A stretch of DNA of 21,065 nt from a virus. Lineage: Duplodnaviria; Heunggongvirae; Uroviricota; Caudoviricetes. The position numbers and the translations under genes were made by a program. The notes beneath the pieces are model-generated. The model worked only from the letters and a program-made list of their open reading frames with translations. It made no database searches and was not told where the DNA came from. This document shows, in pieces, positions 676 through 21,065 of this stretch (its first letter is position 1; each line of letters begins with the position of its first letter). Where the stretch lies: IMG/VR virus record IMGVR_UViG_2718218228_000013; one strand, given 5' to 3'.

Positions 676-1632
676 GTGACTAGTTATTCAAACTTTTCCA
701 ATCAAATAAAAGAAACCATCAATAATAAATTCGATCATGAAATTCATGATTGGGACATTATAAAAAACTCAATCACAACTTTAATAAATAAAAATATCCA
801 TGGTGCAGGTAGAAATATCGTTGATTTTATAGATTTAGGTAACTGGGATTTTATTTCAAACTTTTCCTTTGATGACTCTACAAGAAGACTTGAATTAGAG
901 TGGCACCCCAATGATAAATTCCATATATATATTGAGTCCGTTGTGTTTGTCGAGTTTAATGACACTATATATGCTTTCTTAAAGGGATACTATCACAATC
1001 AGTTATCTCTAAATAGAATATATAATACAAAATGCTCTTCATGTTCATTTGAAAACTCAGGTTCTTATATGGTAGACGTTTATAGAACGGTTAAAAGAGT
1101 AAATGAGACAATCCAGACCCCAAATATAAATTGCTATACTACATGTATTTTAACAAGGCCCGCAAATGGTCATGTTACATCTACAGGCTTCTCACGAAAC
1201 CTCATGGATGCGATAAATATTTCATTAGCAGAGCACAAAATAGCCTCTTTACATAATGAAGTCATGAGTATTGAGGAATATGATCGTGATTCTTTACAAG
1301 AGAAAGGAAATACTGCCAGGAGATATTTAGAATATATTCTCATGCTTGTTAATATTCGTATAATGCATTTAAACAACGTTCAATACCAAGAGCAAATGCT
1401 AGGTAGTTTAGTTTCTGTTATTGAGGCTCTGGACTATGAACCATTAATGAAAAATGATGTTGAAATTACAAAGGACATCCTTAATGCTTGCAGCCACCAC
1501 GGGGGGGTTAGAATTGAAAAGAAAGATGTAATTTTTTCTTTGGAAGTTATTGAAAACTTAATTAAAGCCATAAAGAAAACCGACATAAATAAATTACAAC
1601 TCGATGGGATGTTTAAATCAATTCAAAAATAA
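676..1632 (+). CDS. Hypothetical protein (318 aa), AT-rich cargo gene between left att repeat and primase
   Basis: Long ORF with GTG start; GAGG 7 nt upstream; much more AT-rich than the adjacent primase gene. No motif recognised. Confidence 0.6.
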   Translation: MTSYSNFSNQIKETINNKFDHEIHDWDIIKNSITTLINKNIHGAGRNIVDFIDLGNWDFISNFSFDDSTRRLELEWHPNDKFHIYIESVVFVEFNDTIYAFLKGYYHNQLSLNRIYNTKCSSCSFENSGSYMVDVYRTVKRVNETIQTPNINCYTTCILTRPANGHVTSTGFSRNLMDAINISLAEHKIASLHNEVMSIEEYDRDSLQEKGNTARRYLEYILMLVNIRIMHLNNVQYQEQMLGSLVSVIEALDYEPLMKNDVEITKDILNACSHHGGVRIEKKDVIFSLEVIENLIKAIKKTDINKLQLDGMFKSIQK

Positions 1633-1764: not shown

Positions 1765-4098
1765 TTATTTCGCTGCAAACTCATCGCATTTTGGCAACCA
1801 GTCAGCATTGCTTTCCTCTCTTAGGGCCAGATTAGTCTGCATTCCTTGATTGGTCCGTCGTTTCTCATACTGCAGCCCATATTCCTTGAGCATTAACGGT
1901 AGCCCCTTGCCAAACATGGTCAGACTGAGCGTATTTTTATAGCCGTTAGCCTCCATGTAGACCAGATAGGCATGGTAGAGGTAAGTTCGAGGCTGACGTG
2001 GAACAATATTAGCGTTCCCCATAAACATGCCCGTGGTGTCAGGTAGGACCTCAAGGTAGCCGCAAAAATCAAAAGCTGAATCAGCATCACGTTTGATGGT
2101 GAGCGCTTCATCGGAGTTCTGCTGTGACTGAAGCAATGTCCTGGCACTCATTGGGTCGCTGAAACGCTGCATAAGCTGGCGAACAATCACCGCTAGCTCA
2201 CTGGCAATTTTCTCTTTGAGCTGGGTATCGCGTTCCTCCGGGGCTATCTGGTCGGGGAAATGCAGGATCACCCTTCGGCGTGAAACTCCACCACTACGAT
2301 CAGTGAAGCGCATCGGATTATTGTTCACAGCCAGGATGACCGCCGGGATGTGGGTTGAATAGGCGTTCTGATATTTGGGATCAACGGATACCGCATCGCC
2401 GCCAGTGATGGCTTTTAGTCCGGCCCCGTCACCGCTCCACTTTTCCTGGTCGGGAAGTCGAATCAGTGAAAAACCTATTAACGCAGCTCGTTCTCTTGGC
2501 GACTCAAGCATTTCAATGGTTGCCGAGGTCGCGTTATCTTCACCCGCCAGCATGGTTGCTATTTCAGCAAGAATACTCTTTCCACTTCCGCCAGGGCCAG
2601 TGACCTCCAGAAACAGCTGCCAGTCATAACGGTTAGCCAGCACCATAAACAATGCAGCCAGAATAATGTCCCGTTTTTCAGGATTAAAACCTGCGGCACG
2701 ATCCAGCCAGCGCCAGAATGCCGGGGCATGGGTTTCCAGTGACTCACCGTCAACGGGCTGCGTGTAATCCACCTCGCACAGCGTACGTAACCAGTGCTTC
2801 TTATCGTGCGGGCTGAACAATCCTGTCCGGGTATCGAGCACACCGTTGCGAAATCCGATAAGTTGCCGCGCCGGATTCTGCTGTTGCGGAACGATCAGTT
2901 TGAGGGTTTCCACGAGAGACGCAATTTTCGCGGATGAAAAAGGTGCGTCGAGGCGCTGAAACAGCGCAGCGACATCACGGGCAAAATCGGCGTAATAGAT
3001 AACTTTCCAGGCCCCCGCCTCATAGCGTGAAAGGAGCTGCCCGTTCGGGTCTACTGCCAGTGAATTTTTATAGTGATCCACTACCCTCTGCGCTTTTTCG
3101 CTGACGCTCAGCGCGGTAAATTCAGCTTCGCTCATTGTGTCGAAGGGGCTGGCAACAGCTGGTTTTATTACTTCATGAATTGCATGCCGGGTGGCTTCTT
3201 CGCCGTTTTGCGTGAATGCATCGTTCCAGTCACCAAACACAGGCGGGAGCGCCATTGTGCAATTGCAGGCCCCGGTAACAGCTGCGCCCCTTGTTTGCCC
3301 CGCACCGTTGAGATCGCGGTCAGCAGCAATAATTATCTGGTGCGTTGGGTACTCACTGCAGGCAATGCTCGCCAGGGAAAGGAAATTGACGGACGAAAAG
3401 GCCACCATGACAGCATCGCCAGTCAGATAGTTGATAGTAAGTGCGGTGGCATATCCTTCCGCTATCCAGAGCCGTTTGGCTGCTTTGGCAGTACCTTCAA
3501 CCAGGTAAAAGGCATTCTTAACCTGACCGCCTTTAAGGAAGCATTTGCCCCCATTAGCGTTGATTAACTGCAGATTTACCAGCTCTCCATCTGCATACAA
3601 TGGAACGACAAGATCTCCCGCGCGAAATGCCACACCACCGACTTTATGCATAGCGGTTAATTCCCGGCAAGGCAGTGCAGGAAACCCTTTACTCGTCAGA
3701 TAGGCATTGCCAGTGGTCTGGCGGGACTTATCAAACAAACGGGCAGCCAGCACTGCTGCAGCTTTTCTCCCGTCCTCTTTTTCAGGAGAACCAGATTCAA
3801 GCATTCCCTGAGATACTGGCAGCAGGTTTCCGATAATGCCGTTTATTCTGTCTGCCGCTTCACTAATGCCTACATCCAGTACTTTACTTACAAGCGCCAG
3901 GCCATCACCTGCCCCGCACTGGTTACAGAACCACGTTCCCCGCCCTTCCTGGTCATCAAATCGAAAGCGGTCTTTCCCGGCACAGACCGGGCAGGGCTGG
4001 TGCCGATTTTTCAGTACATTTACGCCCAGCGCAGGTAAAATTCTTGACCAGTGACCCCGAGCTGCTTTCTCAGCCTGGCTAACTTTCATTCCTGACAT
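1765..4098 (-). CDS. P4 alpha-type DNA primase-helicase (777 aa)
   Basis: ORF 1765..4155; start placed at the internal ATG (4098) preceded by AAGGAGGG. N-terminal Cys-rich zinc-binding primase region (CPVCAGKDRFRFDD...WFCNQCG); Walker A-like GPGGSGKS. Length equals P4 alpha (777 aa). Confidence 0.92.
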   Translation of the reverse strand: MSGMKVSQAEKAARGHWSRILPALGVNVLKNRHQPCPVCAGKDRFRFDDQEGRGTWFCNQCGAGDGLALVSKVLDVGISEAADRINGIIGNLLPVSQGMLESGSPEKEDGRKAAAVLAARLFDKSRQTTGNAYLTSKGFPALPCRELTAMHKVGGVAFRAGDLVVPLYADGELVNLQLINANGGKCFLKGGQVKNAFYLVEGTAKAAKRLWIAEGYATALTINYLTGDAVMVAFSSVNFLSLASIACSEYPTHQIIIAADRDLNGAGQTRGAAVTGACNCTMALPPVFGDWNDAFTQNGEEATRHAIHEVIKPAVASPFDTMSEAEFTALSVSEKAQRVVDHYKNSLAVDPNGQLLSRYEAGAWKVIYYADFARDVAALFQRLDAPFSSAKIASLVETLKLIVPQQQNPARQLIGFRNGVLDTRTGLFSPHDKKHWLRTLCEVDYTQPVDGESLETHAPAFWRWLDRAAGFNPEKRDIILAALFMVLANRYDWQLFLEVTGPGGSGKSILAEIATMLAGEDNATSATIEMLESPRERAALIGFSLIRLPDQEKWSGDGAGLKAITGGDAVSVDPKYQNAYSTHIPAVILAVNNNPMRFTDRSGGVSRRRVILHFPDQIAPEERDTQLKEKIASELAVIVRQLMQRFSDPMSARTLLQSQQNSDEALTIKRDADSAFDFCGYLEVLPDTTGMFMGNANIVPRQPRTYLYHAYLVYMEANGYKNTLSLTMFGKGLPLMLKEYGLQYEKRRTNQGMQTNLALREESNADWLPKCDEFAAK

Positions 4099-4111
4099 TG
4101 TGCGGCCCTCC

Positions 4112-4435
4112 TTAGTGCAGCGCTGGTTTGTTGAGGTGACGGGAACAAAGTTCATCCATGACCGTCATTCCGAGCAGTGAGAGAACCGGACAGGCTTTAA
4201 GCGGCCCCGACTCCATCAGATCCGAAAGCAACGCGCAGGCAATTTCCAGCCCTCTTTGCTGCCCATGCTGGCGCAGATAGAACCCTTCCAGCTCGCGGGC
4301 TATGGCATCTTCAAGTTCAGCGAGCGTCAGGCCGGAATAACGTTCCTGATGATTGCTTAGAGCCAGCCAGGCACAGGCAACGGCACGGCGATACAGAGCG
4401 GCACGAAGTGCCAGAAGAGATTCACAGCATATCAT
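4112..4435 (-). CDS. Hypothetical protein (107 aa) upstream of primase
   Basis: ORF whose start overlaps the upstream gene stop (TGATG-type) and ends 13 nt before the primase start. No motif recognised. Confidence 0.5.
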
Positions 4436-6400: not shown

Positions 6401-7153
6401 ATGACAATCCCAGAACAGAACAATAACCCGATCGTTGAAATTTCTATCCCTGTTTCGACGCAACAGGCGCTTGAGAAAGTGAATGCCACCAAATCTGCAT
6501 GGCTTGAAGCACGTCGTCAGCAAAAAGCGGCAGCGGATAATATTGCGACAATCCGCCAGCGCCGCGCTGAAATGGAAGCCACGACGAACGCCCTGAATGA
6601 GGAGTGGCGCACGCTATTTCGTGAAAGTCAGGGCGTAGTCTCAAAGGAAATGAAAAAACTGCGCACGGAAATTGCGCTGGGACGAGAAACGCTTGAGGAT
6701 TTTGATGAGCTGCTGGCGGCTCAGGAAAGCGAAAATGCACTTTTGCCGCAGGAGGCTGCGGAATTAGCCGGAAAGTATATCCACGCGCACGACACCCTTG
6801 TGGGTATTCGCGCAAAACAAATCTGGGAAGATTTTATGCAGTCGCATGGAAAAGCACTAATCCAGACACTAAGCCTGCTCAAATCAACAATGGGCAGGGA
6901 AGCCAGCGCAGTTGTCGGTGTGGTGCATTCAGTTAATGACCCGGACACACTGCTGAAAGATTTTATTCATAAACATATCACCAGACCGGCTCTGACTAAC
7001 GATGCGATGCCCGAACAGGACCCCGTGTTTAAACTGGCGGGAGTTGCCCCGGATTATGCGGCCCGTCTGGATTTCAGTAATAAACTCTCTCCAGCAGCTA
7101 TGCATAAAATGAAGGTTCGTCAGGAACGTGCTGAGAAGGAGAAAGCAGTATGA
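6401..7153 (+). CDS. sid: Sid-like capsid size determination (external scaffold) protein
   Basis: 250 aa (P4 Sid 244 aa); first gene of the late operon; internal similarity to the downstream Psu-like protein; stop overlaps the next start. Confidence 0.6.
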   Translation: MTIPEQNNNPIVEISIPVSTQQALEKVNATKSAWLEARRQQKAAADNIATIRQRRAEMEATTNALNEEWRTLFRESQGVVSKEMKKLRTEIALGRETLEDFDELLAAQESENALLPQEAAELAGKYIHAHDTLVGIRAKQIWEDFMQSHGKALIQTLSLLKSTMGREASAVVGVVHSVNDPDTLLKDFIHKHITRPALTNDAMPEQDPVFKLAGVAPDYAARLDFSNKLSPAAMHKMKVRQERAEKEKAV

Positions 7154-7701
7154 TGGCCCGAGTCACTCCAGACCAAGCGCTTATCAGTTTTAGAAATGCC
7201 CGTATTCTGTGGGCTGGACATAGTGAGAGCCGAAAAGCCGTTGAACAACAGATAGAATCACTCCTCACTGCCATGGAAAAACCAGCAGATTATGCTCGAC
7301 AGCTCGAATTACAGCGGGAACATCTGGATGTGCTGAAATGGCAAATTAACTGTGCTGCGCGCGAATGCATTTACTCGCAGCATCAACTGATGGAGGCCTG
7401 CACAGAAGACGCTCTCAGCAATTTTATGCAGGCGAATGGAGCAGCCCTGACATCTGCACTGGCTCCGTTCCTGAAGGGGCGCGGAGGGGTTGACGTTGCG
7501 TCCCGTATATTACGCAATGCTCTGGTTCGCCAGCTGGCAATAACACCGCCTGAAATTGCCGGGGATTATCGTATGATTCTGGATGAATCCGGTGTGATGC
7601 CTGACCCCATGATGGTTCGTGATTGCCAGAGCTCTTACACCCCTGCACAACAACTGCGCTTTCAGCAACGTCTGGATTACATTAACGGCATGCAGGAGTA
7701 A
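7150..7701 (+). CDS. psu: Psu-like polarity suppression / capsid decoration protein
   Basis: 183 aa; LKWQINCAARECIYS, FMQANGAALTSALAP and YTPAQQLRF resemble P4 Psu as I recall it. Confidence 0.7.
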   Translation: MMARVTPDQALISFRNARILWAGHSESRKAVEQQIESLLTAMEKPADYARQLELQREHLDVLKWQINCAARECIYSQHQLMEACTEDALSNFMQANGAALTSALAPFLKGRGGVDVASRILRNALVRQLAITPPEIAGDYRMILDESGVMPDPMMVRDCQSSYTPAQQLRFQQRLDYINGMQE

Positions 7702-7706
7702 TATTA

Positions 7707-7979
7707 ATGGCACTTAAATGTCCCGAATGCGGTACGACGGCACACGCCAGAACCTCCGCCTATGAAGCACCATCGGTTAAACGCTCATGGTATCAGTGCC
7801 AGAATCTTGAATGTTCCTACACATTTACCGCACTGGAAAGTGTGGATACGATAATCATGAAGCCCCGGCGCAATGAACAGGAATCAGAGAAAGCACAAAT
7901 GCCGGAAAAACAACAGCAAACTCTCAATCGCTATGGCTCCGCGTCAAAGCTGTCAAGCCGTCAGCAAATTCCTGTCTGA
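7707..7979 (+). CDS. Ogr/Delta-family zinc-finger late transcriptional activator
   Basis: CPECGTTAHARTS...YQCQNLECSYTF, the classic Ogr/Delta Cys4 motif; 90 aa. Confidence 0.9.
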   Translation: MALKCPECGTTAHARTSAYEAPSVKRSWYQCQNLECSYTFTALESVDTIIMKPRRNEQESEKAQMPEKQQQTLNRYGSASKLSSRQQIPV

Positions 7980-8027: not shown

Positions 8028-8332
8028 CGCCTTTTCCCTGGCTGGCCTGAGAGCGCATGAGTGCATGTCTATAGCGCATGAAAACGCATGATTCTCATGC
8101 ACCATTTTTGACGCGAAAGCCCTTGTGTGGTGGCTTCTGAGACGATTTGCGGAATGCATGAAAACCAGTCTGTTAAGCGAAGCGAGCAGGCGTGGGGGGC
8201 TGCGCGCGCTAAGGGGTTAGATTATAAAATATCAAACGCCGGTGAGATCCATTATTGTGGAACCACCCGAAGGAAGTGTAGAGGCGAAAGTACCCAAAAT
8301 AATTTTGCAAATTATTTAGAAATGAACTGAGC

Positions 8333-8358
8333 GCTCGAAACGAAATATAATTTCGAGC
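8333..8358 (-). terminator. Hairpin downstream of the minus-strand hotspot cassette (candidate terminator)
   Basis: GCTCGAAA-N10-TTTCGAGC inverted repeat about 30 nt after the stop of the last cassette gene; flanked by T-rich sequence. Confidence 0.4.
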
Positions 8359-8388
8359 ACCCCAATTAGCAGTTATATTTTTAATGTA

Positions 8389-8955
8389 TTAAACAGGATA
8401 AAAACCAGAGCTTCCATTCTTATTTAAGTTATGGATTTTATTTGCATCATTAATTTTTATTTGGAACGTCGGACCTTTATTCTCAAGAATTACAATCTGG
8501 AAATTATAGTCCCTTTTGATTAATGCGTGATAAAATGAATCACTGAGACTGACGCTATTAACATCCGATAGAGAACCCCCTCTATCTTTATCAAAGTGCG
8601 TCACTAATGGACTATCAAGCACAACAAATCCAATGAATGGATTCCCTTTTCTTGATAAAAATTCCGCAAAGCAAATGGTAAATATAGCATGCATTACTGC
8701 ACGGGTACCTTTACCAAACATTCCTCGGCGTTTCCCATTGATATTAAAGTCATATGTATCTTCGTCAAATCGCACTTTGTTATCTTTAGAATTTTCAAAA
8801 TTTATATCATTCAAAAAGTCTTGCATCGCTATTTCTATATCATACAAATCAGCTACTGTTAAGGAGTCAAAGTCCTCGGCGGAGTATTTAAGTTCGTCAA
8901 CATCATCTTCTTTATCTTGTAATGAAGATAGAATGCTATGTTTTGTGTGATCCAT
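8389..8955 (-). CDS. ABC/SMC-like ATPase C-terminal lobe (Walker B-like FVVLDSP), hotspot cassette gene 6
   Basis: 188-aa ORF; hydrophobic strand + D (PFIGFVVLDSP); ATG overlaps upstream stop as TAATG; could be a frameshifted continuation of the upstream ORFs. Confidence 0.55.
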   Translation of the reverse strand: MDHTKHSILSSLQDKEDDVDELKYSAEDFDSLTVADLYDIEIAMQDFLNDINFENSKDNKVRFDEDTYDFNINGKRRGMFGKGTRAVMHAIFTICFAEFLSRKGNPFIGFVVLDSPLVTHFDKDRGGSLSDVNSVSLSDSFYHALIKRDYNFQIVILENKGPTFQIKINDANKIHNLNKNGSSGFYPV

Positions 8956-9545
8956 TAAAAGATTGTCTTTATATTCATAAAGTGATTCAAGAGATGAATG
9001 TATTGTTTTATATTTTTATCTTCTAACGTCTTAAAATCACTTTTTTCTGATTGATAAATTTCATTAACATCATTTTTTCTTAACATAATTAATTCATGTT
9101 CGCGAACATTAGATCCGATTGATTCAATTAATCCTTTCAGCTGGCTTTTGATTTTCAATTTTTCTGCATTACACGACAAAAAACAATCATCATATGATAT
9201 TTCATTTTCTTTTTTTTGCGGTGTATTACAGAACTCACAATAAATATCTGCAAAATTATTTAAATAGAAATTCGCCTGTGATACAACATCTATTCTTTGT
9301 AGATCTATAAAGTATTGGTCTTTAAGAAGACTAAATCTTTCAATGAGTAATGATAAGTATTTTTCCCTGTCACTGATTGAATATAATTCATCACTTAACT
9401 CTTTTAATAATTGCTTCTTATCATCAAGTGCATCAACAATACCTTTCAATATATCTTTCGATGATTCAATATCTTGCTCTACTTTCTCAAGTTCTCTTGA
9501 AACAATGACTTGATCATATTCAGGATAAATTAATTGCGCTTTCAA
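8955..9545 (-). CDS. Coiled-coil segment with central CxxC (CEFC), hotspot cassette gene 5
   Basis: 196-aa K/E/L-rich heptad-like sequence; same frame as the upstream Walker A ORF, separated only by one TAA (9576-9578). Confidence 0.5.
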   Translation of the reverse strand: MKAQLIYPEYDQVIVSRELEKVEQDIESSKDILKGIVDALDDKKQLLKELSDELYSISDREKYLSLLIERFSLLKDQYFIDLQRIDVVSQANFYLNNFADIYCEFCNTPQKKENEISYDDCFLSCNAEKLKIKSQLKGLIESIGSNVREHELIMLRKNDVNEIYQSEKSDFKTLEDKNIKQYIHLLNHFMNIKTIF

Positions 9546-9575
9546 TTCCTCATAAATATTTGCAATTTGATTTTT

Positions 9576-10226
9576 TTAAAAATATCTTGCTTTTTTATTT
9601 GGTTTTTCTGCTAAGGAGTTAGTATCATCTCTCTGAGTTAAAAGGAATTTAAATTCAGACTTTCTTTTTGTCTCCTCGCTAGGAATATCAGAAAGAATTA
9701 ACGACTTCTCAGTTAACACTCTTAATTCATCAATACAAAAAAATTCAAAAACATTATTAAGATTAAATTTATGAAGAGTATTACTTAAGTTTGTTCTTAC
9801 TTTAGCCTCTTTGAAATTCAACCTACCATAAAAGTATGATGAAAAACTCTTTTTAGACGAAGCACTTTTGGAAAAAACCATCAACAGATTAGCTTCACTA
9901 ACATTTTCAATGCTCGAATCATATAATCTGTAATGGGCGCTATCCTGAAGAGACCTCTCAATTGTCATTACCCTACCTTGAAAATTAAATTCCAGATAGG
10001 CTAAATCATAACCTTGAGCATGATCGATATCTTTATTTTTTAGTTTTTCACTCCCTAATAAATATCGAATCAAATAATATATGTATGTTTTTCCAGAGTC
10101 AGAACCACCATATAAAATAGTCAATTTAGAACCAAATTCAATTATAGCATCTAATTTATTGAATCCGGTTACCTTTATTTTTCTGAACGTAAAAAAATTG
10201 TCATTCATAATTAAATTCCATATCAT
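9576..10226 (-). CDS. ABC/SMC-like ATPase N-terminal lobe (Walker A GGSDSGKT), hotspot cassette gene 4
   Basis: LTILYGGSDSGKTYI P-loop in a RecF/SMC-like N-terminal context; ORF opens at TTG 10235, ATG starts at 10226 or 10208; ends at in-frame TAA. Confidence 0.6.
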   Translation of the reverse strand: MIWNLIMNDNFFTFRKIKVTGFNKLDAIIEFGSKLTILYGGSDSGKTYIYYLIRYLLGSEKLKNKDIDHAQGYDLAYLEFNFQGRVMTIERSLQDSAHYRLYDSSIENVSEANLLMVFSKSASSKKSFSSYFYGRLNFKEAKVRTNLSNTLHKFNLNNVFEFFCIDELRVLTEKSLILSDIPSEETKRKSEFKFLLTQRDDTNSLAEKPNKKARYF

Positions 10227-10659
10227 ATTTGCCAATTTTATTTTTTATAATTGATTGCAACTGCTCATCAGGAATATCACTATATAACTTAACCACCAAA
10301 TTTATATTATGCTCCATCTGCGCAACATATTCATTATGTAGAGAATTTGTAAATGCATATGTTTTTTCAGAAGCTTTATATACAAAACCACGATGTGTAT
10401 AAATTTTTGAGGCTAGTTCATAGCCTTGCAACAAAGCCAATGATTCTAAAACAATCTCTCGTTTTAGGGCTAACTGAGCATCTCTACGGGGTATTGGAGG
10501 ATGAAGACTAATCTCTTCAGGTAAAAAATCCTTAAGATTTACTAAAATAAAATCAAAACAAATAAGCCGTTCAAGGCTTAATGAAGAAGGATAAATAGCG
10601 ACGAGCACTTTCGCCATTCGACATGCCACTTCTAAACTTGAATTATAAATTCTAACCAT
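10201..10659 (-). CDS. Hypothetical small protein (about 152 aa), hotspot cassette gene 3
   Basis: ATG at 10659 overlaps upstream stop as TAATG; GGTGA 4 nt upstream; stop overlaps start region of gene 4. No motif recognised. Confidence 0.5.
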   Translation of the reverse strand: MVRIYNSSLEVACRMAKVLVAIYPSSLSLERLICFDFILVNLKDFLPEEISLHPPIPRRDAQLALKREIVLESLALLQGYELASKIYTHRGFVYKASEKTYAFTNSLHNEYVAQMEHNINLVVKLYSDIPDEQLQSIIKNKIGKYDMEFNYE

Positions 10660-11276
10660 TATCTCACCGTCCAAATTACTTCACCATCATTAACCAAATG
10701 ATGGCATATTCCTTTTTTATCATTTGCTTCACATATTTTTGATAGTACTGAATGTGCAATTGGTGTCAGAACAGCCTGCTTCAAGACTGCATTACACCTA
10801 ATAAATGCATAATTATGGTCTTCATAAAAGACGGGTTCAATTGAAGATGAAATGTAACATTTCAATGCTTTGAATACATCATCTTTAAATACTTCGCGGA
10901 CAAAAACCTCAAGCGAAGATGCAAAATAAAAATCATTTCTACTATTATTAAAGTGTCGTCTGTATGGATCATCAAGCTCTAAGAAAGAACTATAAGTTTT
11001 ATTTCCATGCTCTGAATAGGCTTGAAGCAGTGCATTAACATATACAGACTCTTTTTTTGAATTGTATGTTGGAATTTCATTTGGAGGGATTCTCACGACA
11101 TACAGCTCGTTAAAGTACTTAAAATAAAGGTGTGTATTTGCAATATCATTTAAAATCAATGATAAGGGTAGAGAGTAAAAAATACTAAAATCAAAATCCT
11201 CAATATATTTTTTTATTTCATCATCTAATGGAATATCAATCTTTTTAGTTATTTTTTTGAAATTGCTGAATCCCAT
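10659..11276 (-). CDS. Hypothetical protein (205 aa), hotspot cassette gene 2; possibly C-terminal part of a frameshifted gene 1-2 fusion
   Basis: AT-rich ORF with one candidate start; overlaps gene 1 by 28 nt across an A7 tract where a 1-nt indel would fuse the frames. Confidence 0.5.
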   Translation of the reverse strand: MGFSNFKKITKKIDIPLDDEIKKYIEDFDFSIFYSLPLSLILNDIANTHLYFKYFNELYVVRIPPNEIPTYNSKKESVYVNALLQAYSEHGNKTYSSFLELDDPYRRHFNNSRNDFYFASSLEVFVREVFKDDVFKALKCYISSSIEPVFYEDHNYAFIRCNAVLKQAVLTPIAHSVLSKICEANDKKGICHHLVNDGEVIWTVR

Positions 11277-11665
11277 GAATCAAGGACTGCTTTTTTAAGC
11301 TCGTTTTTATTTTTCAATAAATTAGAAAATGTAGTAGATAAATCATAGGGTGCCACAAAAAAGTACTTCTGAGGGATGGGATAATCACCATTCAGAGTAA
11401 AATAGATAAGTTTTCCAAACTCAACTACAACATCAGAGAACCCTAAACTTTTTTTGTACAGTTTGCATTGATAATTATCCCAAGAATAACCTTCTACGTT
11501 AGGATCCGATTTATATCCAACAACGTCTCTACCTTTATCTCCAGCTCCTCCCAAACGTTCGCTCCACGGGTAATCATCTGATTTACAGACAATAAGCCAA
11601 TCATGGACAAATACCCCCCATTGTTCATCATCCCATGTCAATATTTCCGAAAGTGGTTGAGACAC
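11249..11665 (-). CDS. Mrr-type PD-(D/E)xK restriction-endonuclease-like domain protein (138 aa), hotspot cassette gene 1
   Basis: GGAGDKGRDVVGY ... YQCKLYKK matches the Mrr catalytic pattern; GTG start with AAGGAG 7 nt upstream, 3 nt after the int stop. Confidence 0.55.
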   Translation of the reverse strand: MSQPLSEILTWDDEQWGVFVHDWLIVCKSDDYPWSERLGGAGDKGRDVVGYKSDPNVEGYSWDNYQCKLYKKSLGFSDVVVEFGKLIYFTLNGDYPIPQKYFFVAPYDLSTTFSNLLKNKNELKKAVLDSWDSAISKK

Positions 11666-11668
11666 AAA

Positions 11669-12850
11669 TTAACTCCTTTTTAGTCTTTCAAATATCAAAT
11701 TACTGTACCAGTCCATCATAGACTTCCTTCCACTAAAATATTGAGCATGGTTATAAGTCCCCCTAATAGAATTTTTATCTACATGAGCCAACTGGATTTC
11801 AATCCAAGCACTCTCAAAACCTTGCTCATGCAGGATTGTAGAAAGGGTATGACGAAAACCATGTCCAGTGACTTTTCCTCCATACCCAATACGCTTAATG
11901 GCTTGATTTATACTCGCTTCGCTCATTGGCCTATTCGGATCGTTCCGCCCTGGAAAAACATAACGATAGTTCCCTGTCATGATCTTGAGTTCATTGAGTA
12001 AATCTACCGCTTGAGATGATAAGGGCACAAGATGTGGCCTACGCATTTTCATCCTTTCAGCAGGAATTTCCCAAATAGCGTTATCCAGATCAAATTCTTG
12101 CCATAATGCCGCGCGTAATTCGATGGTTCTCACACCCGTAATCATCAGTAATTTCGTGGCTATCTGGACAAGCTTACTCCCGGAGTAACCCTCTAAGGCA
12201 CGTAGAAAATCAGGTATCTCATCAGCTTTTAGGAATGGGAAATGATTGGATTGGTGTACTTCGAGAGCGCTGGAGAGATCAGCCGCAGGATTGTACTCCG
12301 CCCTACCCGTTGCAATTGCGTAGCGAAACACTTCGGAGCAACGCTGCCGCACTTTGCGCATTTTCTCCAACGCACCACGTTTCTCAATTTTACGCAGAAC
12401 GTTCAGCAGCTCTAGCGGTTTAATCTCTCCCACAGGCCTTGTTCCGACATAAGGAAAAATGTCGTTCTTAAACGCTTCCATGATGTCTGATGCATATCCC
12501 GCCGACCATTTAGCAGATTTAAGTTGATGCCACTCTCTGGCTATCTTTTCGAAGGCGTTCTCTGACTCTGTTTGCATAGCTAGCTTTTGCTCTTTTCGAA
12601 CCTCACTAGGGTTCTTTCCTTCTGCCACAAGTTTTCGAGCTTCATCACGACGGGAACGAGCATCGGCAAGGGTGATCGTTGGGTAAACACCAAGCGAGAT
12701 CATTTTGGGTTTGCCGGCATAGCGATAGCGGAACCGCCAACTCTTGCTTCCATTAGGTTCTATAAGTAATGACAACCCTAGCCCATCTCCAAATGTATAG
12801 GCTTTAGCTTCAGGCTTAGCGCGGCGAATCTGCATATCGTTTAAAGGCAT
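11669..12850 (-). CDS. int: P4-type tyrosine integrase
   Basis: MPLNDMQIRRAKPEAKAYTFGDGLGL N-terminus and C-terminal HGFRHT...Y catalytic region; start placed at ATG 12850 (ORF opens at 12901). Confidence 0.92.
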   Translation of the reverse strand: MPLNDMQIRRAKPEAKAYTFGDGLGLSLLIEPNGSKSWRFRYRYAGKPKMISLGVYPTITLADARSRRDEARKLVAEGKNPSEVRKEQKLAMQTESENAFEKIAREWHQLKSAKWSAGYASDIMEAFKNDIFPYVGTRPVGEIKPLELLNVLRKIEKRGALEKMRKVRQRCSEVFRYAIATGRAEYNPAADLSSALEVHQSNHFPFLKADEIPDFLRALEGYSGSKLVQIATKLLMITGVRTIELRAALWQEFDLDNAIWEIPAERMKMRRPHLVPLSSQAVDLLNELKIMTGNYRYVFPGRNDPNRPMSEASINQAIKRIGYGGKVTGHGFRHTLSTILHEQGFESAWIEIQLAHVDKNSIRGTYNHAQYFSGRKSMMDWYSNLIFERLKRS

Positions 12851-12900
12851 GTGTATAGGAATCCAGACCGAACAGGAACATATACACAATCCTATACACA
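12850..12900. promoter_or_regulatory. Perfect 11-bp inverted repeat (TGTGTATAGGA / TCCTATACACA) bracketing the int translation start region
   Basis: Arms at 12850-12860 and 12890-12900 separated by 29 bp, immediately upstream of and overlapping the int ATG. Confidence 0.4.
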
Positions 12901-13012
12901 TTCAGTACCGGATTCTACTGGATGGTTACGGACTACTATGGACTTAAAAGAATAAAAAATGTTATAAATCAGAGATTTTATGGACTAATACGGACGTTTG
13001 AGGAAGTTGAGA

Positions 13013-13405: not shown

Positions 13406-13771
13406 GTGCAGGATGTCATGTTAGGAGCGATAGAAAAACGCTTTGGCGATAAAGTACCGGAACAGTCCATCCAGTGGCTGACAGATAACGGTTCAGCGTA
13501 TAGAGCGCATGAAACACGGCAGTTCGCCAGAGAGTTGAATCTGGAGCCCTGCACAACGGCAATCAGCAGTCCTCAGAGTAATGGAATTGCAGAAAGGTTC
13601 GTGAAAACGATGAAGGAAGACTACATCGCGTTCATGCCGAAACCGAATGTAAGAACGGCATTGCATAATCTTGCAGTGGCGATCGAACATTACAATGAAA
13701 ACCATCCGCACAGTGCGTTGGGTTATCGCTCTCCGCGAGAATATCGACGTCAGCGGGTAACGTTAACTTAA
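13406..13771 (+). pseudogene. IS2-like (IS3 family) transposase OrfB C-terminal fragment; IS remnant about 13130-13810
   Basis: [11 protein letters not shown]...[16 protein letters not shown]...[14 protein letters not shown] is the DDE-core C-terminus typical of IS2 OrfB; no upstream OrfA or N-terminal OrfB in frame. Confidence 0.7.
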
Positions 13772-13812
13772 GATACCCCCCCTGTCTGGAAATAAGGGGG
13801 CAAGAACAATGA

Positions 13813-14556
13813 TCAGATTCCCTGGTGAGTAAGAATTTTACTTTCTGAACTCCTCTGAGAGTATTGACTTGGAGAAACACCAAAATAACGTCTAAATACA
13901 TAAGTAAAGTATGAGACACTGGCATAACCACAGACCTTAGCTACTTTACTAATAGGATAACAACGAGTGCTGAGTAAATATTCAGCCATTTGCATCCTCT
14001 CATCAAGTATGATCTTACTGAATGATACCCCCTCTTCTTTCAATTTCCTCTTTAGTAAACTTTCGCTGAGATATAATCTTGATGATATATCCTTAAGACG
14101 CCATGGTGCAGATAAATCCGTATGAATAATCGTTTTAACTTTAGCCCCTGTGCTTTTCAAACATCCAAACAGAAATACTCCAAATTGTTTTTCAGAAGAA
14201 AATGCAGAGAGACATGTAAAAGCAATAGACTCATCAAAAATTTCTATGTATTCAGCACAGTGATTAGCCCAACTAATTAATCCTTTAATTAAACTGAAGT
14301 CAGCAAAGTTTATTTTTAAATAAGATGGATATTCCCTACAATCAGAAATATCCCTTAAGTTATTAGCTTTCAAATAGCGACTAATAAACTCAGCGCCAAA
14401 ATCCGCCACTATCACTCTTTCAGGATATGTCAGGAAAAAATCTCTAGAGCTAGAGTCGACAAGTACAGATGAACCTCTCTCCAGAAACACACTCTCTTTT
14501 CCGAAATAAACATCAAAGGACTCCAAAATCAATATAACTGAACATGTAGTTGCCAT
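13813..14556 (-). CDS. AraC-family transcriptional regulator (AppY/EnvY-like)
   Basis: C-terminal AraC-type HTH (LKDISSRLYLSESLLKRKL...YFTYVFRRYFGVSPSQY); AT-rich. Confidence 0.8.
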   Translation of the reverse strand: MATTCSVILILESFDVYFGKESVFLERGSSVLVDSSSRDFFLTYPERVIVADFGAEFISRYLKANNLRDISDCREYPSYLKINFADFSLIKGLISWANHCAEYIEIFDESIAFTCLSAFSSEKQFGVFLFGCLKSTGAKVKTIIHTDLSAPWRLKDISSRLYLSESLLKRKLKEEGVSFSKIILDERMQMAEYLLSTRCYPISKVAKVCGYASVSYFTYVFRRYFGVSPSQYSQRSSESKILTHQGI

Positions 14557-15283: not shown

Positions 15284-16153
<870 letters not shown>

Positions 16154-16210: not shown

Positions 16211-16765
16211 TCATTTATCTCCGGCCGGAAACTTCTTATACAGTGTCGATACACCAACATCATAGATGATCGCTACCTTCTGGCGAGGAATTCCTGCTGC
16301 AATTAATCGTCCGGCCTGCGCCCATTGTTCTGGTGTAAGTTTGGGACGACGTCCACCAATTCGTCCCTGTGCGCGAGCAGCTTCCAGTCCAGCTTTTGTT
16401 CGTTCAACAATCAGTTCTCGTTCCATTTCAGCCAGGGCCCCCATCACATGAAAGAAAAAGCGCCCCATTGGGGTACTGGTATCAATAGCATCCGTCAGGC
16501 TGCGAAAATTAACGCCACGTTCGCGCAACTCCTCAACCAGAATGACCAGATGCCGCATACTGCGCCCCAGCCGATCCAGTTTCCAGACAACCAGAGTGTC
16601 ACCTGCCGATAATGTCCTGAGCAGTTTTTTCAGTCCCGGCCTTTCGGACTTTGTACCGCTTATCTTGTCTTCAAAAATCAGCTCGCATCCTGCACAGTTC
16701 AGCGCATTACGTTGTAGATCTGTGTTCTGGTCATTTGTTGACACACGTACATAGCCAATAAGCAT
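16211..16765 (-). CDS. pin: Pin/Hin/Gin-family serine DNA invertase
   Basis: MLIGYVRVSTNDQNTDLQRNAL, the near-invariant N-terminus of Hin-family invertases, with C-terminal HTH; 184 aa from ATG 16765. Confidence 0.93.
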   Translation of the reverse strand: MLIGYVRVSTNDQNTDLQRNALNCAGCELIFEDKISGTKSERPGLKKLLRTLSAGDTLVVWKLDRLGRSMRHLVILVEELRERGVNFRSLTDAIDTSTPMGRFFFHVMGALAEMERELIVERTKAGLEAARAQGRIGGRRPKLTPEQWAQAGRLIAAGIPRQKVAIIYDVGVSTLYKKFPAGDK

Positions 16766-16791
16766 GGTAGATCTCCCTGACAAAAGCAGGA

Positions 16792-17289
16792 ATGATGCCA
16801 TTTGCTCGTTATTTCTGCATTTTCATAAACGTTGGTTTGGGAGAAGGTGCTCCAGCTATTGGCGTTCCGTTCTTCTGGCCGTCCGCTGCAATGCCAAATA
16901 CTGTAATCGACAGCTGGTCCTGTATGGTGTTTTTGAAGTTCAACGGCGCGAAATTCTCTGCCACTGATTATCCTGTGCTGGCGAAAGTGTTTCCTTCGCT
17001 GGTATTACCTGAAGCCCGCGGTGATTTCATTCGTATCTGGGATGACGGGCGAGGTGCAGACGGTGGTCGCGAATTATTAAGCTGGCAGGCAGCTACAAAC
17101 TTTTCTCAGTTTGCCGGGAATATAGGCGAAGGTGCGGGACACGCAATTAACTTTCATGATGGCATCGCCGGAAATCAGCCAGGATTTTCACGATTTAATT
17201 TCACCAGTAACTCTGTGGGTGATGGTGTGAATTTTGTTGCAGTCAGACCGCGAAATATTGCATTTAACTTTCTGGTGAGGGCTAAATAA
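16792..17289 (+). CDS. Tail fibre C-terminal variable segment (silent/partial cassette)
   Basis: Collar-like C-terminal sequence (FSATDYPVLAKVFPSLVLPEARGDFIRIWDDGRG); begins inside the crossover site with no constant N-terminal part. Confidence 0.55.
   Translation: MMPFARYFCIFINVGLGEGAPAIGVPFFWPSAAMPNTVIDSWSCMVFLKFNGAKFSATDYPVLAKVFPSLVLPEARGDFIRIWDDGRGADGGRELLSWQAATNFSQFAGNIGEGAGHAINFHDGIAGNQPGFSRFNFTSNSVGDGVNFVAVRPRNIAFNFLVRAK
16820..16845. promoter_or_regulatory. Candidate Hin-family recombination crossover site
   Basis: TTTTCATAAACG-TT-GGTTTGGGAGAA: two inverted 12-bp half-sites fitting TTnTCnnAAAC / GTTTnnGAnAA, inside the 5' end of the tail-fibre ORF. Confidence 0.45.
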
Positions 17290-17882
17290 TGAAACCTGTT
17301 TTTGATGAAAATGGGCTGGCTACAGTGCCGGGCGATATGCGTTGTTTTTATTATGATGCTGAAACATCTGAGTATACGGGCTGGTCTGATGAATATATTA
17401 ATACTGGCGTAAGTATGCCCGCCTGTTCCACTGGTATTGACCCTGGCGAAAACATTCCGGGAAGAGTGGCAGTATTTACAGGTAAGGGATGGAGCCATGA
17501 AGAAGACCATCGCAATGAGACTGTTTACTCAATCGAAAATGGCGCAGCTGTTACAGTGGATTATATCGGTGCCATCAAAGACGGTTATGTCACGATTTCA
17601 CCGTTAACGCCATACGATAAATGGGATGGTGAGAAATGGGTGACAGACACTGAGGCACAACACAGTGCCGCAGTAGACGCGGCAGAAGCACAGCGCCAAT
17701 CACTGATTGATGCAGCAATGGCTTCCATTAGTCTGATTCAGCTGAAGTTACAGGCCGGACGGAAACTGACTCAGGCAGAAACAACCCGACTTAACGCCGT
17801 GCTGGATTACATTGACGCGGTGACGGCAACAGATACCAGCACCGCGCCGGATGTCATCTGGCCTGAACTGCCGGAGGCGTAG
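17289..17882 (+). CDS. tfa: Tail fibre assembly protein (Tfa)
   Basis: Typical Tfa C-terminus (LDYIDAVTATDTSTAPDVIWPELPEA); start overlaps the upstream fibre ORF stop. Confidence 0.8.
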   Translation: MKPVFDENGLATVPGDMRCFYYDAETSEYTGWSDEYINTGVSMPACSTGIDPGENIPGRVAVFTGKGWSHEEDHRNETVYSIENGAAVTVDYIGAIKDGYVTISPLTPYDKWDGEKWVTDTEAQHSAAVDAAEAQRQSLIDAAMASISLIQLKLQAGRKLTQAETTRLNAVLDYIDAVTATDTSTAPDVIWPELPEA

Positions 17883-18306
17883 GCCATTCAATATCTGGCG
17901 CACCGGAAGTATCGACCAGCTCCAGTGCGTCCAGATAATCCAGCCACAAATTATATTGCGTCAGTTCGTCACCTTTCAGACGACCAATAGCCGCTTTACC
18001 GGGCCATTGCTTACTGTTCATGTATTCGTTGGCCTGGTTAATTAGTAGCTGTCTTTCTGATTCAGTAATTTCAATAAGCTCTTCATGCGTGGGTGGAGGA
18101 ATATCTGCCCACGCAGGCAGCCCATCATCTCCGGCAATACGGATTTTTCCTTGTGGCGGTTCAGCCATAAACTCACTGATAATATTTTGATTTACTTCCT
18201 TAGCGTCTGATAAATCCCATCCCTCTGATTTATATTTATCAATCATATCCACAGGGAAAAAAGCATTATGCCTTGCGCTATAAACATATTCGTCCATATA
18301 AATCAC
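17854..18306 (-). CDS. tfa: Tail fibre assembly protein (alternative Tfa, opposite orientation)
   Basis: Tfa C-terminus (LWLDYLDALELVDTSGAPDIEWPTPP); convergent with the other tfa, as in invertible G/P segments. Confidence 0.8.
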   Translation of the reverse strand: MIYMDEYVYSARHNAFFPVDMIDKYKSEGWDLSDAKEVNQNIISEFMAEPPQGKIRIAGDDGLPAWADIPPPTHEELIEITESERQLLINQANEYMNSKQWPGKAAIGRLKGDELTQYNLWLDYLDALELVDTSGAPDIEWPTPPAVQAR

Positions 18307-18414
18307 CCTGAATAAAATTACTCACCAACAGCCCACCAACTGTAATTCATCGATACCGTGTGAACCGCCCCGGGTTTCCTGGAGACTAAACTCCCTGAGA
18401 AAGAGGTAAACAGG

Positions 18415-18741
18415 ATGACTAAAAATACTCGTTTTTCCCCCGAAGTCCGTCAGCGGGCGATTCGTATGGTTCTGGAAAGTCAGGATGAATATGACTCACA
18501 GTGGGCGGCAATTTGTTCCATTGCCCCAAAGATTGGCTGTACGCCGGAGACTCTGCGTGTCTGGGTTCGCCAGCATGAGCGGGATACCGGGGGCGGTGAT
18601 GGTGGGCTCACCAGCGCTGAACGTCAGCGTCTGAAAGAGCTGGAACGTGAAAATCGTGAACTGCGCCGCAGTAACGATATCCTTCGCCAGGCTTCCGCTT
18701 ATTTTGCGAAGGCGGAGTTCGACCGCCTCTGGAAAAAATGA
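18415..18741 (+). CDS. IS3-family transposase OrfA (HTH)
   Basis: [22 protein letters not shown]...[31 protein letters not shown] is the OrfA type of IS629/IS3-group elements. Confidence 0.9.
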
Positions 18742-19628
18742 TGCCACTGCTGGATAAGCTGCGTGAGCAGTACGGGGTCGGACCGGTATGCAGCGAACTG
18801 CATATTGCCCCGTCAACGTATTACCATTGTCAGCAACAGCGACATCATCCGGATAAACGCAGTGCCCGTGCGCAGCACGACGACTGGCTGAAGAGAGAGA
18901 TACAGCGCGTATACGATGAAAATCATCAGGTGTACGGTGTGCGTAAAGTCTGGCGTCAGTTGTTACGGGAAGGAATCAGGGTGGCCAGATGTACAGTGGC
19001 ACGTCTCATGGCGGTTATGGGACTTGCCGGTGTTCTCCGGGGTAAAAAGGTCCGTACGACCATCAGCCGGAAAGCCGTTGCCGCAGGCGACCGCGTAAAC
19101 CGTCAGTTCGTGGCAGAACGACCTGACCAGCTGTGGGTGGCTGATTTTACTTACGTCAGCACATGGCAGGGCTTCGTCTATGTGGCGTTTATCATTGATG
19201 TGTTTGCCGGATACATCGTGGGGTGGCGGGTCTCATCGTCTATGGAAACGACATTCGTGCTGGATGCGCTGGAGCAGGCGTTGTGGGCCCGTCGTCCGTC
19301 TGGCACCATCCATCACAGCGATAAAGGCTCTCAGTATGTGTCACTGGCCTATACGGAGCGACTAAAAGAAGCCGGATTACTGGCATCAACAGGGAGTACA
19401 GGCGACTCGTATGACAACGCGATGGCTGAGAGCATCAATGGTCTTTACAAAGCGGAGGTAATACACCGTAAGAGCTGGAAAAACCGTGCAGAAGTGGAAC
19501 TGGCCACACTAACGTGGGTGGACTGGTATAACAATCGACGATTGCTGGGAAGGCTGGGCCATACTCCTCCGGCAGAAGCAGAAAAAGCTTATTATGCTTC
19601 CATCGGAAACGATGATCTGGCAGCCTGA
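18738..19628 (+). CDS. IS3-family transposase OrfB (DDE integrase core), expressed as OrfAB by -1 frameshift
   Basis: DDE region (WVADFTYV...HSDKGSQY...[11 protein letters not shown]); overlaps OrfA at the A6 run 18733-18738. Confidence 0.9.
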
Positions 19629-20086: not shown

Positions 20087-20200
20087 ATGGATGCACAAAC
20101 ACGCCGCCGCGAACGTCGCGCAGAGAAACAGGCTCAATGGAAAGCAGATCGGATTCTGGCTTCAACATTTCGCAGGAATGCAACTAAGAGACATTACTGA
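20087..20200 (+). pseudogene. N: Truncated lambda N-like antiterminator (first 20 codons, the arginine-rich motif only)
   Basis: [20 protein letters not shown] identical to the lambda N amino terminus, then unrelated sequence and a stop 17 codons later. Confidence 0.8.
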
Positions 20201-21065
20201 ATCAAAAATTTATTCAGCAATGCAGAAAATGACGAACCGGCGTCATGAGGAAAACTGGAAACTCAGGGCAGAAGCATGCAGAAAAAAAGGGAAACCTGTT
20301 CCAGAATACACGCCAAAACCAGCGTCCGTTGCAACGAAGGCTACGCATCTTTCATTTATAAAGGCCCTGCTAAGAGCCGCAGAGCGTGAATGGAAAATGC
20401 TCGATAAGGCACCAATTATTAAAGTGCCTCAACCAAAGAATAAACGGATCCGCTGGCTGGAGCCCCATGAAGCACAAAGGCTGATTGATGAATGTCCGGA
20501 GCCATTAAAGTCTGTTGTTGAATTTGCACTGGCAACAGGCTTAAGACGCTCGAACATCATCAACCTTGAATGGCAACAAATAGATATGCAGCGCCGGGTG
20601 GCATGGATAAACCCGGAAGAGAGTAAATCAAACCGCGCAATTGGCGTTGCGCTGAATGATACTGCATGTCGCGTATTGAAAAAACAAATCGGTAATCATC
20701 ACCGTTGGGTATTTGTGTACAAGGAAAGCTGTACCAAACCAGACGGAACGAAAGCGCCAACAGTAAGGAAGATGCGGTATGACGCAAACACAGCCTGGAA
20801 AGCGGCGCTGAGACGGGCTGGTATTGATGATTTCAGATTTCACGACTTGAGACACACCTGGGCAAGTTGGCTGGTTCAAGCCGGAGTCCCGTTGTCAGTG
20901 TTACAGGAAATGGGAGGCTGGGAGTCTATCGAAATGGTTCGTCGATATGCTCACCTTGCACCTAATCACCTTACCGAACACGCACGGCAAATAGACTCGA
21001 TCCTGAACCCATCGGTCCCAAATTTGTCCCAGTCAAAAAATAAGGAAGGTACTAATGATGTGTAA
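20091..21065 (+). CDS. Phage tyrosine integrase, 5'-truncated and fused to the N' segment (possible pseudogene)
   Basis: Integrase-like sequence from about 20148 (GFWLQHFAG...) to [10 protein letters not shown]...VRRYAHL; the first about 19 codons are lambda N DNA read out of frame. Confidence 0.65.

Follow-up and report, generated by a model that had tools for sequence, protein, structure and literature searches.

A nonsense codon in lmuB of a decaying Lamassu cassette in the P4-like prophage Sp2 of Escherichia coli O157:H7

The minus-strand TAA at positions 9576-9578 of the DNA stretch analysed here (21,065 nucleotides, in the following called the window) is very probably a fixed nonsense mutation that turned the leucine codon 211 (TTA) of lmuB into a stop, in a Lamassu cassette of prophage Sp2 that was already broken. 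One dead gene of 606 codons thus accounts for the three open reading frames 9576..10235, 8955..9545 and 8389..8955, which are its pieces and neither separate genes nor a recoding site. The window originates from Escherichia coli O157:H7 and its P4-like prophage Sp2.

9576..9578, minus strand: TAA nonsense codon, lmuB codon 211; ancestral TTA (Leu), change at 9577

The minus-strand frames on both sides of this codon (9576..10235 and 8955..9545) are present in the list of open reading frames, and since 10235-9545 equals 690 or 3x230 nucleotides they share one frame. Translation of the minus strand over 8389..10235 gives one stop, within ...KKARYF*KNQIANIYEELKAQL... or, with a wider left flank, ...NKKARYF*KNQIANIYEELKAQLIYPEY..., and the ten codons that lead from the TAA to the TTG at 9545 are open. 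On the plus strand a T7 run (9571-9577) is followed by an A5 run (9578-9582); the minus strand reads TAT TTT TAA AAA AAT CAA. A first-pass annotation of this DNA had described two frames in register, parted by one TAA beside T7 and A5 homopolymers, and both the frame list with its translation and the run positions bear this out. Its wording of a single TAA holds for the number of stops in frame and misleads otherwise, as the cassette has three disabling lesions, of which this stop arose last. The annotation was silent on the second, older lesion of lmuB (9013-9017) and on the frameshifted effector gene upstream.

The cassette is a Lamassu (ABC-3C) operon of the order lmuA (Mrr nuclease-CTD6), lmuC (MC2) and lmuB, which occupies 8389..11665 of the minus strand. 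It is of the short, type II kind of these anti-phage systems, and its lmuB is the gene for an ATPase resembling Rad50 and SMC proteins. This block of 3.4 kb has a GC content of about 28-31% against about 50% in its surroundings, and matches at 99% identity or more were found in 310 E. coli records (309 genomes), with strain 350 at 100%. The Sakai record assigns this region to 'prophage Sp2, P4-like phage'. It is framed by genes that mark a P4 cargo hotspot, with a P4 alpha primase further out. Its genes abut or overlap and run in one direction from 11665 to 8389, as in a compact operon. A promoter scan of the cassette returned scores no better than those of shuffled sequences. The flanks, the operon end and the two upstream genes are as follows.

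11669..12901, minus strand: P4-type integrase flanking the cargo hotspot (from context)
6401..7979, plus strand: P4 sid/psu/delta genes at the opposite edge of the hotspot (from context)
8329..8362, minus strand: terminator-like 13-bp hairpin just past the lmuB stop, likely the operon end
11249..11665, minus strand: lmuA fragment 1, 138 aa, Mrr-like PD-(D/E)xK nuclease domain; PADLOC LmuA profile 10-140
11252..11258, minus strand: A7 run of lmuA, one base short against orthologues, giving a -1 frameshift at codon ~137
10659..11276, minus strand: lmuA fragment 2, 205 aa, CTD6 domain; Pfam CTD6 E=7.7e-30, PADLOC LmuA profile 141-333
10201..10659, minus strand: lmuC, 152 aa, ABC-3C middle component 2, intact; Pfam MC2 E=6e-30, PADLOC LmuC E=2.9e-36, PGAP

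The gene lmuB is represented by three fragments with the following motifs and lesion.

9579..10208, minus strand: lmuB fragment 1, 210 aa, N-terminal ATPase head lobe; PADLOC LmuB PDLC03863 E=1.3e-49, Pfam AAA_23
10086..10109, minus strand: Walker A GGSDSGKT, residues 34-41, read from the translation
8955..9575, minus strand: lmuB fragment 2, coiled-coil arm; PADLOC LmuB profile 210-412, protein and DNA alignments
9228..9239, minus strand: CxxC (C324-E-F-C327) at the coiled-coil apex, Zn-hook-like; motif and orthologue model
9013..9017, minus strand: A5 run of lmuB, one base short (A6 in P. mirabilis), giving a -1 frameshift at codon ~398
8389..8955, minus strand: lmuB fragment 3, 188 aa, C-terminal ATPase head lobe; PADLOC E=5e-37, Pfam DUF3732, alignment
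8611..8628, minus strand: Walker B FVVLD-S, the hhhhD[S] type of short Lamassus (motif type according to PMC12663957)

Together these three frames cover the PADLOC LmuB profile of 610 positions consecutively (3-199, 210-412 and 428-608). Fragment 1 corresponds to a PGAP CDS in EDL933, and its ATG at 10208 overlaps the lmuC stop. Fragment 2 is without an ATG start, so that ORF callers take the TTG at 9545; after the deletion its final 19 codons (8958-9014) are read out of frame, up to the stop 8955-8957. Fragment 3 lies in a different frame, and its ATG, which is an internal methionine of the ancestral gene, overlaps the stop of fragment 2 as TAATG. Residues G34, S36, D37, G39 and K40 of Walker A, both cysteines (C324 and C327) of the apex in 32 homologues like the former, and D532, S533 and P534 of Walker B among the homologues are invariant. 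Thus the homology to LmuB and the succession of Walker A, coiled coil and Walker B are those of a Lamassu, and yet no polypeptide carries both head lobes, due to the TAA at codon 211 and the 1-nt deletion at codon ~398. As Walker A, the CxxC apex and Walker B reside on separate frames, no single piece of lmuB can be an ATPase.

The ancestral state is evident from intact relatives. Twenty-six homologues of 594-612 aa span 97-100% of the concatenated lmuB translation, and none of them is split. The best ones, both of 606 aa, are from Proteus mirabilis (85% identity) and Pantoea alhagi (73%). In an alignment of nine sequences the column of the stop holds leucine in all eight homologues, within the conserved motif EKPNKKA+xFLKxQ, and the homologues of 606 aa align across this position gap-free. 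The corresponding codon is TTA in P. mirabilis and CTG in Pantoea. P. mirabilis reads TAT TTT TTA AAA AAT (T6A6) where the window reads TAT TTT TAA AAA AAT (T5A7), which means that one T-to-A exchange on the coding strand, at 9577, accounts for the change from T6A6 to T5A7. The first-pass annotation had proposed a comparison with orthologous cassettes and had named, as the observation that would speak against its reading, orthologues that end at this position and are followed by a gene with its own start. The orthologues instead have leucine at this codon and encode a single LmuB of 606 aa.

At the level of DNA, intact three-gene cassettes encode proteins of 335, 152 and 606 aa and measure 3279 nt in 5 of 5 loci, with all three genes open in each of these five relatives, whereas the copy in the window measures 3277 nt. 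Its alignment (89% identity to P. mirabilis, 79% to Pantoea) contains exactly two gaps of 1 nt, at ~11256 in lmuA and at ~9018 in lmuB. The Pantoea cassette is flanked by a P4-type integrase and by ogr/delta-psu-psu, has proBA as a neighbour and thus lies in the same P4 satellite hotspot. LmuC has with 152 aa the same length as in the intact cassettes. LmuA homologues are single proteins of ~335-380 aa, and the two lmuA frames of the window are consecutive parts of one LmuA profile with 336 positions (10-140 and 141-333); here the effector and its C-terminal domain, elsewhere fused, are parted by the 1-nt deletion, and the frameshift runs straight into a TAA at 11249-11251. For the N-terminal domain of LmuA, Pfam and NCBIfam gave nothing even at E<=10. 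Three LmuA homologues carry PF04471 (Mrr-type restriction endonuclease) and the motif G42-D43-x-G45-x-D47...Q66-C67-K68 is invariant in 24 sequences; on these grounds the domain is read as a putative nuclease effector of the Mrr-like PD-(D/E)xK type.

The intact LmuB of P. mirabilis was modelled with AlphaFold2 from an alignment of 32 sequences (mean pLDDT 85.7). In this model the N-terminal head lobe extends to residue ~200, a helix 205-224 holds Leu211, the long arm helix comprises residues 233-318, the apex with C324xxC327 residues 319-338, and the return helix 339-439, which holds the frameshift codon, leads into the C-terminal head lobe (444-606). The first-pass annotation was right that the stop parts the Walker A lobe and the coiled coil, with residue 211 lying between head lobe and arm of the modelled orthologue. 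A fold search with the model returned as best matches the Lamassu LmuB chains 9uxh, 9hqu, 9hqx, 9ux7 and 9nyg, followed by heads of Rad50 and SMC proteins. Sequence identity to the solved LmuB chains is just 12-14%. Searched with phmmer against PDB sequences, neither the intact LmuB orthologue nor that of LmuA found a match, and a profile gave only marginal matches to N-terminal parts of SMC and Rad50 proteins, so that the kinship to solved LmuB is seen by fold search only.

The distribution of the stop in E. coli was followed among complete-genome records with a 90-nt blastn query centred on it and with a second 90-mer repaired to TTA. The query with TAA matched 309 records, of which 296 were identical and 13 differed. 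The TTA version was found exactly in ten records, namely eight of O55:H7 type (O55:H7 RM12579, USDA5905, DEC5A, DEC5B, DEC5D, DEC5E and TB182A as well as FDAARGOS_946), 493/89 and LSU61; CB9615 likewise has T at 9577. Megablast with stop-centred queries of 60 nt and 90 nt returned nothing, presumably owing to low-complexity masking and the word size of 28 nt. TAA is seen only in typical O157:H7. In the stepwise model leading from O55:H7 to O157:H7, the early branches include O55:H7 itself, LSU-61 and a sorbitol-fermenting O157:H- clone (493/89), and the split between TTA and TAA fits this model.

These counts also bear on the view that the stop is an error of sequencing or assembly at the T7/A5 junction, the true codon being TTA and the gene continuous here. 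The junction of two homopolymer runs is indeed an error-prone context on some platforms. The lesion, however, is a substitution and not an error in length, the identical TAA 90-mer is shared by those 296 independently sequenced records, and the TTA state is confined to the phylogenetically coherent, early-branching set of O55:H7 strains, 493/89 and LSU61. The probability of an error, which the first-pass annotation had listed among its options, is practically nil, and the option has to be rejected.

Seven E. coli copies were aligned with two outgroups for mapping of the lesions, which fall as follows.

1-nt deletion in lmuA: 7 of the 7 E. coli copies compared
1-nt deletion in lmuB, codon ~398: 7 of the 7 E. 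coli copies compared
TTA>TAA, lmuB codon 211: window, Sakai and EDL933 only, among the seven copies
-A at lmuB codon 388: CB9615 and FDAARGOS_946
+T at lmuB codon 155, and Q214*: CB9615
lmuC Y87* (PGAP 'internal stop'): FDAARGOS_946
+A at lmuB codon 388: LSU61

The lesions, their polarity and their distribution are direct observations. They amount to eight disabling events over seven copies, five of them beyond the three of the window. The annotation of 493/89 joins fragments 1 and 2 in a single CDS of 417 aa, which is the layout of the window minus the stop. Variable substitution sites among the E. coli copies number 16 (3 nonsense, 11 missense and 2 synonymous). The nonsense codon Q214* of CB9615 is only three codons away from the TAA and independent of it, which shows that the region is unconstrained. 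With intact orthologues, a derived and lineage-restricted lesion and multiple independent disabling lesions in relatives, lmuB has the properties of a unitary pseudogene. In the RefSeq record of Sakai ECs_0293 is a pseudogene (AAA family ATPase) that spans all three lmuB frames. Of the options considered in the first-pass annotation it is thus the nonsense lesion that is supported, by the leucine found in 8 of 8 homologues and by the TTA in the copies of O55:H7, 493/89 and LSU61.

Another of its options was a readthrough site, meaning that programmed readthrough of the stop or other recoding would yield a full-length LmuB. Both frames are in register and the downstream one has neither an ATG nor a convincing Shine-Dalgarno sequence, which speaks for this option. 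The stop, on the other hand, is not conserved, since leucine stands at this codon in all orthologues and in the ancestral E. coli copies. Both release factors recognise UAA, the least leaky of the stop codons in E. coli, and a search of the window for a tRNA gene, as a possible suppressor, found none. Readthrough would moreover gain nothing, the C-terminal ATPase lobe being out of frame regardless: the frameshift 187 codons downstream would still remove the Walker B lobe, and its A5 run (9013-9017) is not on an X_XXY_YYZ heptamer. The downstream frame is neither intact nor constrained, as the classes of the 16 variable sites indicate, and sister lineages gained other stops and indels including the Q214* of CB9615. 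Recoding is hence extremely improbable and the readthrough option finds no support.

It could also be asked whether LmuB is naturally split and functional, with the N-terminal head, arm and C-terminal head reassembling into a system that still defends. Rad50-type head lobes can in principle associate as separate chains. The TAATG overlap of fragment 3 with the upstream stop could permit its coupled translation, lmuC is intact in O157:H7, and PGAP gives the three pieces of lmuB as ordinary CDSs in most genomes. Against this stand the complete lack of splitting among the 26 full-length homologues, the missing credible start of fragment 2, the frameshift in the effector gene lmuA, the ratio of 14 nonsynonymous or nonsense to 2 synonymous sites among E. 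coli copies, as expected without constraint, and the five further independent disabling events among these copies. A functional split protein is very improbable. An independent start of fragment 2 was considered separately; the only candidate, in lieu of an ATG, is the TTG, which has GAGG just 2 nt upstream, and it was dismissed.

The lmuA frameshift occurs on an A_AAA_AAA heptamer followed by the stop, and low-level -1 slippage is conceivable there. From this a partly active cassette can be construed, in which slippage at 11252-11258 would deliver full-length LmuA, while LmuC and the separate LmuB pieces would form a residual or re-purposed complex, for example one with attenuated defence or one acting as a regulator of Sp2. 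A stimulatory RNA structure was sought after the A7 run and none was found (MFE -5.9 kcal/mol, weaker than for most shuffled sequences), fragment 2 has no start, and the sister lineages keep gaining lesions. We consider such residual activity, in either form, highly unlikely.

Decay of a pseudogene remains the best explanation, and its course may be reconstructed as follows. The two frameshifts in lmuA and lmuB would have inactivated the cassette before the split of O55:H7 and O157. Because both deletions are common to every O55:H7/O157 copy compared, the cassette would already have been inactive when the TAA arose. The latter would have come later, on the branch to typical O157:H7, and would have been fixed without selection against it. 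Since its inactivation the cassette presumably drifts, with different lesions in each branch. The T-to-A exchange where two homopolymer runs meet and the four indels located within A/T runs suggest replication slippage or misalignment in AT-rich DNA. Judged from its sequence, the cassette has probably lost its function.

Among known systems the short or type II Lamassus of the order lmuA-lmuC-lmuB (e.g., LmuACB of Salmonella enterica, 9hqu/9hqx, and type II LmuACB, 9uxh) are the closest kin. In short Lamassus LmuB measures ~600 aa, its Walker A is Gx4GK[ST] and its Walker B hhhhD[Q/S/T/E], and some clades possess a Zn-hook (PMC12663957). The cassette of the window shares with them the PADLOC profiles LmuA, LmuC and LmuB as well as Pfam CTD6 and MC2, and its ancestral LmuB likewise had ~600 aa, a Walker A of the form Gx4GKT, a Walker B of the form hhhhDS and a CxxC at the apex. 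In contrast with them its lmuB is in three pieces (nonsense and frameshift) and its lmuA in two (frameshift). In Lamassu a dimer of LmuB with LmuC sequesters monomeric LmuA, which is released by DNA ends and tetramerises into the active nuclease so that the infection is aborted; Walker A mutants lose defence and LmuA is toxic if overexpressed (PMC12663957). This toxicity is a plausible reason for the knockout of both lmuA and lmuB.

The DdmABC system of Vibrio cholerae (Lamassu Vc-Cap4, 9nyg) belongs to the same family and presumably shared the mechanism ascribed here to the ancestral cassette. It differs by its Cap4 nuclease from the Mrr-like PD-(D/E)xK effector of the window, the LmuB clades are distant, and the O157:H7 copy is a pseudogene. 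A split ABC head with an antiparallel coiled coil in between and a CxxC apex is found in Rad50/SbcC too, and it has been proposed that Lamassu derives from SbcCD (PMC12663957). In contrast with Rad50/SbcC the LmuB of the window has a much shorter arm and a Walker B that diverges, it lies in the setting of a defence island, and an Mre11/SbcD partner is absent. As to its location, the cassette resembles the P4-like elements of Pantoea that carry an intact one in the hotspot between int and delta/psu/sid. A survey from 2026 found recognisable defence pseudogenes to be rare in P4 hotspots (<1% of P4 pseudogenes) and favours swapping of functional systems before inactivation (PMC13586616). Unlike the usual P4 cargo of this survey, the O157:H7 cassette is a rare case of decayed cargo and has been kept across the whole O55:H7/O157:H7 lineage.

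The Lamassu/ABC-3C family, its presence in P4 hotspots and the fact that ECs_0293 is a pseudogene are already on record, and the gene is an ordinary, already annotated pseudogene with nothing mechanistically surprising. What is added here are the ancestral state from which each lesion arose, the relative age of the lesions, the assignment of the fragments to Lamassu and Mrr, and the finding that in most PGAP records the fragments figure as ordinary CDSs. For O157:H7 the majority of these records list five proteins for two broken genes (three times 'hypothetical protein', one 'AAA family ATPase' and one 'ABC-three component system protein'), and only the curated Sakai record flags the ATPase as pseudogene. 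The exchange TTA>TAA at 9577 is a clean lineage marker that separates typical O157:H7 from O55:H7, 493/89 and LSU61 (5,426 complete genomes). For the biology of P4-like satellites the cassette is a concrete case of defence cargo that decays in place within an otherwise intact-looking element and a long-lived counter-example to cargo swapping, though as an anecdote and not as a new principle. From its sequence the native cassette of O157:H7 is predicted to confer no protection against phages or plasmids, and censuses of defence systems should not count a functional Lamassu in O157:H7.

The effector gene lmuA of the broken Lamassu operon is interrupted at the sequence TC A_AAA_AAA TAA (window 11249-11260, minus strand), a frameshift site that is common to all seven E. 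coli copies compared. Its A_AAA_AAA run represents a canonical X_XXY_YYZ slippery heptamer for -1 frameshifting in the correct phase, directly followed by the stop codon of the 0 frame. Upon a -1 slip at this position the ancestral LmuA frame (…ISKK|ITKKIDIPLDDE…) would be regained. A search for a stimulatory RNA structure downstream of the heptamer found none (minimum free energy -5.9 kcal/mol, weaker than that of shuffles).

Among the intact relative loci the deposited lmuA calls are short in two cases, namely 145 aa in Proteus mirabilis (L003, GCA_054147305.1) and 201 aa in Pantoea alhagi (L005, CP019706.1). The DNA of both contains an uninterrupted lmuA ORF of 335 aa, the length at which the gene is called in the other three loci (L004, L006 and L007). 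Judged from this DNA, the short calls are an inconsistency of start-site choice or annotation and no lesion.

Codon 17 of lmuA (window 11616, minus strand) carries G (Gly) in the window and A (Glu) in both outgroups and in every other E. coli copy, Sakai and EDL933 included. This G is apparently the one difference that leaves strain 350 as the sole 100% match to the low-GC block of the window. One of the 312 places in E. coli records that match this block is located on a record typed as plasmid, and one E. coli genome possesses two such places.

Outside the operon, a low-GC (~31–32%) ORF of 318 aa (676-1632, plus strand) adjoins the gene for the P4 alpha primase (1765-4155, minus strand). Neither Pfam nor PADLOC gives a match for this ORF, and it may represent unknown cargo of the satellite at a second variable locus. 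Beyond the P4-type integrase the window is of mosaic make-up (13406-14556 and 16211-19628), as seen from Pfam matches (P) or our reading of ORF translations (R):

13406-13771: truncated rve-type transposase fragment (R)
13813-14556: AraC-family regulator, low GC (P)
16211-16801: Pin-like serine invertase (P)
within 16211-19628: tail-fibre-assembly-like ORFs (R)
18415-19628: element of the IS3 family whose two transposase ORFs overlap (R)
20091-21065: second tyrosine integrase, running past the window end (P)

A 274-aa GIY-YIG protein (15329-16153, plus strand; Pfam LEM-3_GIY-YIG) matches PD-T4-3, a single-gene defence system in PADLOC, over its full length (E=2.3e-140); this adjoining mosaic region thus seems to hold a defence gene that is intact.

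Sister lineages have acquired additional lesions of their own in the same cassette:

lmuB codon 155, +T: O55:H7 CB9615 (L008)
lmuB Q214*: O55:H7 CB9615
lmuB codon 388, -A: both O55 copies, CB9615 and FDAARGOS_946 (L009)
lmuB codon 388, +A in the same A-run: LSU61 (L011)
lmuC Y87*: FDAARGOS_946

These lesions are of use as lineage markers.
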